Part shown: positions 5,052-5,148 of the stretch, piece after piece
Numbering within the stretch: position 1 is the first letter of the stretch
Layout: each line of letters opens with the position of its first letter
DNA from: a virus
Lineage: Duplodnaviria > Heunggongvirae > Uroviricota > Caudoviricetes
Strand: one strand, 5' to 3'
Length of the DNA: 13,218 bases
Virus record (IMG/VR): IMGVR_UViG_2693429582_000029
The notes under the pieces: model-generated
Seen by the model: the letters and a program-made list of their open reading frames with translations, nothing else
What the model was told of the DNA's origin: nothing
Databases searched by the model: none
Made by a program: the position numbers and the translations under genes

Positions 5052-5065
5052 ATGACCTCCACATA

Positions 5066-5128
5066 TTGCGTGATGAGCATATTATTTCACGCAAATATTT
5101 TGCGCAAGTTGATTTGCTTAACGCGCAA
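5066..5128. promoter_or_regulatory. Operator region between the cro-like and cI-like genes (OR analogue) with two dyad-symmetric sites
   Basis: Exact inverted repeat TTGCGTGA (5066-5073) / TCACGCAA (5087-5094) with a 13 bp spacer. Second site TTGCGCAA (5100-5107, itself palindromic) paired with ACGCGCAA (5121-5128), also 13 bp apart. The 9-mer CGCAATAAA recurs downstream of cI at 5907-5915. Confidence 0.6.
5079..5107 (-). promoter_or_regulatory. Candidate sigma70 promoter for the cro operon (PR analogue)
   Basis: On the minus strand: -35 TTGCGC (5107..5102), a 17 nt spacer, -10 TAATAT (5084..5079), about 30 nt upstream of the cro-like ATG. Both elements overlap the palindromic operators. Confidence 0.5.
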
Positions 5129-5148
5129 TAAAGAAATGTAATAAACGC

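Follow-up and report, generated by a model that had tools for sequence, protein, structure and literature searches.

The interval 5052–5148 of the window (the whole stretch of viral DNA analysed here, 13,218 nt) is the divergent cI/cro lysis/lysogeny control region of a lambdoid prophage that is very common in E. coli and Shigella, of the SfII/mEp460 immunity type. As judged from sequence, the repressor sites in this region are most likely conventional 15-bp dyads of the TTGCR-N5-YGCAW type. An initial reading made from the bare sequence (the sequence-only reading) had proposed longer operators, namely gapped 29-bp dyads with 13-bp spacers, and this parsing did not hold. We consider it probable that the region corresponds to OR in a lambdoid immunity module and works as a standard lambda/434-style switch with 15-bp dyads. 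The immunity type is already known at the level of gene annotation; the operator consensus and map are new details (Table 1).

The window is a lambdoid prophage in which the interval separates two divergent genes, a cro-like gene on the minus strand (start codon CAT at 5049–5051) and a cI-like gene on the plus strand (ATG at 5149). The divergent switch layout seen in the sequence-only reading was confirmed by Pfam domains, which place a repressor with HTH and S24 domains opposite a small Cro-type HTH gene, and by the cI and cro annotation in SfII and Stx2a phages. Cro is the annotation of the counterparts in SfII, PhiR63_1 and Stx2a phages, and cI and cro are named as such in the records of all three, with generic names (prophage repressor, helix-turn-helix regulator) elsewhere. 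The cI-like protein matched Peptidase_S24 (E 6.5e-19) as well as HTH_26, HTH_31 and HTH_3, and its C-terminal domain aligns to UmuD. Its residues A99-G100, S144 (in GDSM) and K181 are invariant across eight family members with 66–97% identity. At the sequence level, these residues represent the LexA/CI-type cleavage site (Ala-Gly) and the catalytic dyad (Ser/Lys) of a self-cleavage apparatus. The nearest PDB sequence to the CI N-terminal domain was a 434-derived domain, although distant (E 2e-4). In the HTH alignment of Cro and CI, the recognition helices read NPATLSRIE and DAANISRLE, so that the pattern x-A-x-[IL]-S-R-[IL]-E is common to both. The cII-like protein is 89% identical to e14 YmfL. 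Scanning with Rfam found no RNA family within the cI-cro control region itself.

Table 1. Genes, predicted promoters and candidate operators of the immunity module, in order of position in the window. PWM scores are in bits, with the rank in the window and the number of hits expected where given.
Feature	Positions	Strand	PWM score	Remarks
cII-like gene, Phage_CP76/YmfL family	4247–4798	-		Pfam PF06892, E 1.2e-14; next in PR operon
cro-like gene	4791–5051	-		86 aa; Pfam HTH_3, E 5.8e-10
cro Shine-Dalgarno, GGAGGT on minus strand	5055–5060	-		read off sequence; CCTCC kept in relatives
O_A, TTGCG-TGATG-AGCAT	5066–5080		14.7 (rank 2; 0 expected)	candidate operator over PR -10 end and predicted PR start (about 5072)
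PR -10, TAATAT	5079–5084	-		predicted; TAAYAT in 89/95 distinct relatives, fixed 17-nt spacer
R2, TCACGCAA	5087–5094			isolated half-site, only in the window's clade; lowest-information stretch family-wide
R3/O_C, TTGCG-CAAGT-TGATT	5100–5114			strong left half (PR -35 on the other strand), weak right half
PR -35, TTGCGC	5102–5107	-		predicted; in 95/95 distinct relatives
O_D, TTGCT-TAACG-CGCAA	5114–5128		12.9 (rank 3; 0 expected)	candidate operator over -35 and spacer of predicted cI promoter
PRM, TTGCTT (5114–5119), 17 nt, TGTAAT (5137–5142)	5114–5142	+		predicted; inferred
O_E, ATGTA-ATAAA-CGCAT	5136–5150			possible weak operator over PRM -10 and start
cI-like repressor gene	5149–5841	+		230 aa; N-terminal Cro/C1-type HTH, C-terminal S24 peptidase
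Intrinsic terminator after cI	5862–5879	+		terminator scan; annotated terminator in SfII
OL2, TTGCA-CATCT-CGCAA	5897–5911		23.5 (rank 1)	exact motif match; best PWM score in the window
OL1, TCGCA-TGATG-CGCAA	5921–5935		10.8 (rank 5)	overlaps -35 and spacer of predicted PL
PL, TCGCAT (5921–5926), 17 nt, TATCTT (5944–5949)	5921–5949	+		predicted; TTGCRT-17-TATCWT recurs in relatives
Unnamed hit, ATGGG-CATCA-CGCAA	9582–9596		12.2 (rank 4; 0.03 expected per window)	

The 1.2-kb cII'-cro-cI segment shares 97–99% identity with PhiR63_1, mEp460 and phiSTEC1575-Stx2k, ~96.6% with Stx2a_1447/WGPS2 and 92% with Shigella phage SfII. SfII, mEp460, Stx2a_1447/WGPS2 and phiSTEC1575-Stx2k (92–99% over this segment) have the same immunity module as the window, and at least 80% of the segment was found in 1,040 of 5,426 complete E. 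coli genomes. For comparison, we collected 245 related loci from genome contigs, IMG/VR, SfII and phage Eeyore. These contained 97 distinct intergenic sequences, 95 of which align base for base without indels. CI identity within this set ranges from 66 to 100%, and the CI recognition helix (D-x-A-N-[IV]-S-R-[LV]-E-T-G-K-Q) is essentially constant. The length of the OR region is likewise constant, except that a few relatives have gained or lost 1 nt close to the start of cI. A search for distant relatives with indels that part R3 from O_D returned none from the collections searched, in which the family ends at ~65% cI identity. Operators and promoters are not annotated in the SfII record, the one such record inspected, and searches of the literature for SfII and mEp460, for the operator sequence and for lambdoid half-sites gave no experimental account of these operators.

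The repeats quoted in the sequence-only reading are present, and both sites lie between the divergent starts. Site 1 consists of TTGCGTGA (5066–5073) and TCACGCAA (5087–5094), which are complementary at 8/8 positions across a 13-nt spacer. Site 2 consists of TTGCGCAA (5100–5107) and ACGCGCAA (5121–5128), which are complementary at 6/8 positions and have exact TTGCG/CGCAA cores. The TTGCG/CGCAA repeat pattern is more than chance: five of these pentamers occur in 76 nt, where 0.19 are expected (~25-fold enrichment, Poisson P about 8e-7), and when the 97 nt were resampled 20,000 times under a Markov model, two gapped sites with the same core appeared once. An 8-nt inverted repeat by itself is not unusual, being reached in 10% of resamples. 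It had also been suggested that the motif be sought elsewhere in the prophage. With up to one mismatch allowed, TTGCG-N19-CGCAA occurs only at the two OR places in the 13.2 kb, both times exactly, and what was found after cI were 15-bp dyads.

The 15-bp unit was defined by conservation. In a cluster-weighted information profile of the 95 indel-free relatives, conserved blocks were found at TTGCG 5066–5070, CGCAT 5076–5080, the PR -10, TTGCGCAAGT 5100–5109, TTGCW 5114–5118, CGCAA 5124–5128, TGTAAT 5137–5142 and CGCATG 5146–5151, and variable stretches at 5071–5075, 5119–5123 and, above all, 5086–5099. Conserved halves that are 10 bp apart and flank a variable centre define the dyad WTGCR-N5-YGCAW. 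O_A matches this motif exactly in 82/95 relatives and with one mismatch in another 12, its half-sites being near-invariant and its N5 variable. O_D, which also has a variable N5 centre, matches exactly in 72/95 relatives and with one mismatch in 23. Between SfII and the window, the two N5 centres differ at 3 and 2 positions, and the only difference in a half-site is an A-to-T change at 5076, toward the consensus.

Two further elements are weaker. O_C shares 1 bp with O_D, and its centre is at about -42 from the predicted cI start. Its TTGCGCAAGT segment is invariant in the relatives, and the O_C 15-mer has one mismatch in 50/95 relatives and two in 43/95 (two in the window, where its PWM score is not significant). 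O_E has one mismatch in 82/95 relatives and scored 3.4 bits in the window, with 1.3 such hits expected; the CGC before the cI ATG is conserved although it is untranslated. Several related dyads thus overlap the divergent promoters, as far as sequence and conservation go. The arrangement is not the tripartite one of a lambda-type OR, as there are two significant sites, centred at 5073 and 5121, that are 48 bp apart. As the O_D left half and the TTGCG of R3 double as promoter -35 elements, their conservation alone is no proof of repressor binding.

A second cluster with the same motif, OL, is located at the other early promoter, where the two dyads in the window lie 55 and 79 nt beyond the stop codon of cI. 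Exactly two 15-bp dyads were found downstream of cI at comparable positions in 159 of 163 distinct relatives. The OL2-OL1 spacing in these relatives is 22, 23 or 24 bp, and the length of N5 is fixed. We trained a PWM solely on the OL sites of the relatives and ranked ~13,200 window positions by a strand-symmetric score. The five best positions comprise both OL dyads, O_A, O_D and the hit at 9582–9596, and all other positions are at noise level. Two candidates that involve R2 were rejected by this PWM: R2 as part of a 15-bp site (5080–5094) scored at noise level, as did the other R2-containing 15-mers, and the midpoint element 5090–5104, a back-to-back R2/R3 dyad of everted half-sites (CGCAA-N5-TTGCG), scored -57 bits. 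The hit at 9582–9596 lies inside the 3' end of a xis/AlpA-like ORF (9433–9627), and could have arisen by chance or be a CI site that lies apart from the others, towards the int-xis end. Loose WTGCR-N5-YGCAW matches (up to one mismatch) that cluster at 3284–3517, in a region coding for a Rha domain, were treated as coding-sequence noise; only one of them reaches a marginal PWM score (5.8 bits, 0.5 expected).

The left half of OL1 is also the predicted PL -35. It contains TCGCA in the window and in none of the ~244 other loci inspected, and the loci that align at this half show TTGCAT or TTGCGT (TTGCR). With this private T-to-C change in 5921–5926, the promoter should be weaker, and so should the operator half-site.

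The repeats could also be parsed as first described, with each 29-bp TTGCG-N19-CGCAA unit (5066–5094 and 5100–5128) forming one operator whose strong outer half-sites are 24 bp apart. The binder would then be a CI dimer with widely spaced domains, or a tetramer, with two dimers on overlapping 15-bp sites that share one bp. Both units are exact at their cores and have identical spacing, and together they make up an inverted repeat of 32 nt (72%) with its axis at about 5097. At site 2, the outer cores (TTGCG 5100, CGCAA 5124) are conserved in 95/95 relatives in an OR without indels, and the inner halves at 5110–5114 are moderately conserved, so that O_C/O_D could be composite. In one relative, L005, both arms have changed (TTGCGTCA/TGACGCAA) such that site 1 is still symmetric at 8/8 positions. 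Site 1 and OL, however, do not follow this pattern. The right arm of site 1 (5087–5094) sits where conservation within the region is lowest: its core is found in 23 distinct relatives, which all belong to the window/SfII/Citrobacter clade (cI identity of 93% or more), and is missing in 72/95 despite the same CI recognition helix. Complementarity of the site 1 8-mers is at most 4/8 in most relatives, and positions 6–8 of the 8-mers vary among close relatives, with TGA to CGT and ACG to TCA changes from the window to SfII. In SfII, the left arm of site 1 (5066–5073) reads TTGCGCGT and the right arm of site 2 (5121–5128) reads TCACGCAA, which breaks the 8-mer symmetry. Moreover, the 13-bp "spacers" hold strongly conserved inner half-sites (CGCAT 5076–5080 and TTGCW 5114–5118). 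In the OL cluster downstream of cI, a TTGCR-N19-YGCAA arrangement was found in 0/163 distinct relatives, and the inter-dyad spacing there is not fixed. Arms and spacing that are conserved along with the repressor and recur at OL, as expected of long gapped operators, were thus not found at site 1 or at OL. No 434/lambda-type HTH dimer is known to have half-sites 24 bp apart, and we regard the 29-bp units as unlikely operators. Because of the evidence from the site 1 arm, the 8-mers, the inner half-sites and OL, we take the operators to be about as long as those of 434 and lambda, not longer. The gapped sites most likely pair half-sites that belong to different 15-bp units.

For 5100–5128, we also weighed a composite operator of the form TTGCGCAAGT-N4-TTGCW-N5-CGCAA, in which two 15-bp dyads share one bp between the back-to-back -35s; this is quite doubtful. 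If true, two CI dimers would bind either in a mutually exclusive manner or on different helix faces, and a single 29-bp element would decide both PR repression and the activation or repression of cI. The clade-specific mirror copy at 5066–5094 would then make the whole OR a pseudo-palindrome.

The R2 half-site has its own pattern of variation. Its core ACGCAA (5089–5094) is invariant in the 23 distinct sequences of its clade (0/6 core positions variable), and the neighbouring positions 5088 and 5095–5099 vary freely within this clade. From its sequence, R2 thus appears constrained within its clade, without explanation in the 15-bp model. The change in L005 is a compensating one in both arms of site 1 (TGA/TCA to TCA/TGA), which the 15-bp model does not explain.

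The hexamers of the minus-strand PR that the sequence-only reading had proposed (TTGCGC-17-TAATAT) are present, conserved and overlapped by the repeats. Calling this promoter well-formed was generous, as it matches the consensus at 7/12 positions and is absent from the output of a simple promoter scan. The predicted PR is credible because it is conserved across the relatives. The sole promoter flagged by the scan, TCCACA-16-TATTAT on the plus strand (5058–5085), was rejected, as neither of its hexamers is conserved in the relatives. The hexamers of the predicted PRM are found in 95/95 relatives each, as TTGCWY and TGTAAT, with the caveat for this assignment that TGTAAT has a non-canonical G at -11. 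There are 6 nt between TGTAAT and A5149 of the cI ATG, and the sequence before this ATG contains no Shine-Dalgarno motif; the cI transcript is predicted to be leaderless and to start at A5149. The predicted PL, with an expected start at about 5956, matches the consensus at 6–7/12 positions and reads into the early genes on the plus strand (about 6540 to 9627). PR, PRM and PL each have a TTGC-type -35 inside an operator half-site, and their hexamers are invariant or nearly so. The ~600 nt downstream of the predicted PL (5950–6540) contain no convincing ORF and no Rfam match, and the sequence of SfII differs there. A nut-like antitermination site could be located in this stretch, or else a small gene or RNA that has escaped annotation.

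As three TTGC elements coincide with predicted -35 hexamers, and as resampling often yields an 8-nt inverted repeat, the repeats might have no protein-binding role at all and consist of -35-like hexamers with chance symmetry, or of a hairpin in a read-through transcript. This is very improbable. The right halves (CGCAT 5076–5080, CGCAA 5124–5128 and both in OL) are not promoter hexamers, yet they are conserved like the left halves. The best match to the motif, OL2, lies outside all predicted promoters, and the pentamer enrichment is far from chance. A hairpin at 5066–5094 would be outside the transcript, as the predicted PR transcript starts downstream of R2.

The gapped dyads could instead be sites of the CP76-family CII-like activator, in which case site 2 would make the cI promoter CII-dependent. 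The cII-like gene does belong to Pfam Phage_CP76, and site 2 flanks the predicted cI -35, with 8-mers that are 21 bp apart and a centre at about -35. The CII homologue of phage 186 recognises inverted half-sites that are two helical turns apart and flank a -35; these half-sites are reportedly 20 bp apart, centre to centre. The e14 CII is a close relative of the window's protein, yet the e14 cI-cro region, where cI is unrelated, has no TTGCG motif and instead contains TTGTACC-N5-GGTACAA. Therefore, the TTGCG repeats travel with cI/cro and not with cII, and we rejected the CII two-turn reading, as the geometry is similar but not co-inherited with the CP76 protein. The TTGCG half-sites are also found again after cI, in a place where one would not look for an establishment promoter. 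We hold a CII role of these sites to be most improbable.

For the lambda/434-style switch that we favour, the analysis establishes what the genes are, where the motifs lie, how far they are conserved and that a second cluster of sites exists; the identity of the binding protein, the order in which sites are occupied, the promoters with their starts, and the sign of the effect of CI on its own promoter (activation or repression) are what we infer. A CI dimer would bind the 15-bp WTGCR-N5-YGCAW dyads, with half-sites one helical turn apart as in the geometry of 434-type repressors. Cro would most likely bind the same half-sites as CI, a proposal made because the recognition helices of the two proteins are similar. 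Occupancy of O_A would shut off PR and with it transcription of cro, cII, antirepressor and replication genes. CI dimers at O_A and R3/O_C would block PR, and those at OL1 and OL2 would block PL. Through O_D, and perhaps O_E, on the cI promoter, Cro would repress cI and CI would limit its own expression; O_D would act like lambda OR3. From its position, O_C may allow an activating contact of CI with PRM; lambda CI activates PRM from a position that matches about -42. A strong site directly on the cI -35 (O_D) is awkward for lambda-like positive autoregulation. Induction would occur through RecA-stimulated self-cleavage of CI.

Like lambda, the window has a cI with a LexA-like C-terminal domain that is divergent from cro, dyads that overlap back-to-back promoters, and another set of operators at the leftward early promoter, on the far side of cI. 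As in lambda, cI is apparently leaderless, with a -10 hexamer 6 nt before the ATG; lambda PRM is leaderless and has the same hexamer-6 nt-ATG geometry. Adjacent OL sites in lambda are 23–24 bp apart, compared to 22–24 bp in the window's family. However, the operators are 15-bp TTGCR-N5-YGCAW dyads instead of 17-mers. Two strong OR sites plus weak or partial ones replace the three evenly spaced sites of lambda, there are two OL sites instead of three, and the site at the position equivalent to OR2 overlaps the next one. In addition, the Cro of the window is an HTH_3 protein that does not belong to the lambda-Cro fold family, and the proteins are unrelated beyond the domain level. The resemblance to 434, whose operators are 14-bp ACAA-N6-TTGT, lies in a short dyad with half-sites of 4–5 bp one helical turn apart and a variable, non-contacted centre, in a recognition helix that is similar in repressor and Cro, and in the CI N-terminal domain, for which the 434-derived domain is nearest. 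It is only a distant similarity; the half-site sequence and the number and spacing of sites differ, and there is one more central bp.

With e14 (ymfK-ymfT), the window shares the module order cI / cro-cII(YmfL), an operator left half that is the cI -35 and is followed by 17 nt, TNTAAT, 6 nt and ATG, and a dyad operator with an N5 centre. The e14 cI is unrelated except for a short local S24 peptidase match, and cro differs as well. As the operator sequence and cI/cro differ, e14 has a different immunity specificity. An alignment with the e14 locus (L245, 4269–4826, versus window 4247–4826) shows the likeness in the cII/YmfL-like gene next to unrelated cI and cro, and SfV, cdtI and Stx2c phages are among many that match only window 4700–4826. 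These confined matches and the likeness to e14 cII place a recombination joint of the mosaic close to where cro ends (3').

The immunity type described here occurs in ~1/5 of complete E. coli genomes and includes Stx2a-converting phages and the serotype-converting Shigella phage SfII. The operator consensus TTGCR-N5-YGCAW and the promoter map may therefore serve as a concrete basis on which to predict superinfection immunity and the cross-repression of prophages that reside together, as well as to design reporters and induction-defective mutants. Conceptually, they add nothing to the lambda/434 paradigm, and the main value of this analysis is the corrected parsing of the sites.

Further features of the window concern its neighbouring regions. 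Rfam identified a C4 antisense RNA (3702–3789, 82.8 bits) and isrK (3814–3890, 63.7 bits) on the minus strand. Both matches lie inside an ORF of 382 aa (3102–4250, minus strand) with Ash and Rha domains in its C-terminal part, and the 5' end of this long ORF has probably been called too far upstream. The locus at 3702–3890 looks like an antirepressor module of the P1 immI/Gifsy type under antisense RNA control, downstream of cII in the PR operon, which would be a second layer of immunity control. At 9735–11924 (minus strand), an AT-rich gene encodes a CHAT-domain protein of 729 aa that matches PADLOC BovA, a Borvo anti-phage defence gene (E 5e-241). As this BovA-like gene is found between the xis-like gene and a P4-type integrase (12001–13218), it is defence cargo carried by the prophage.
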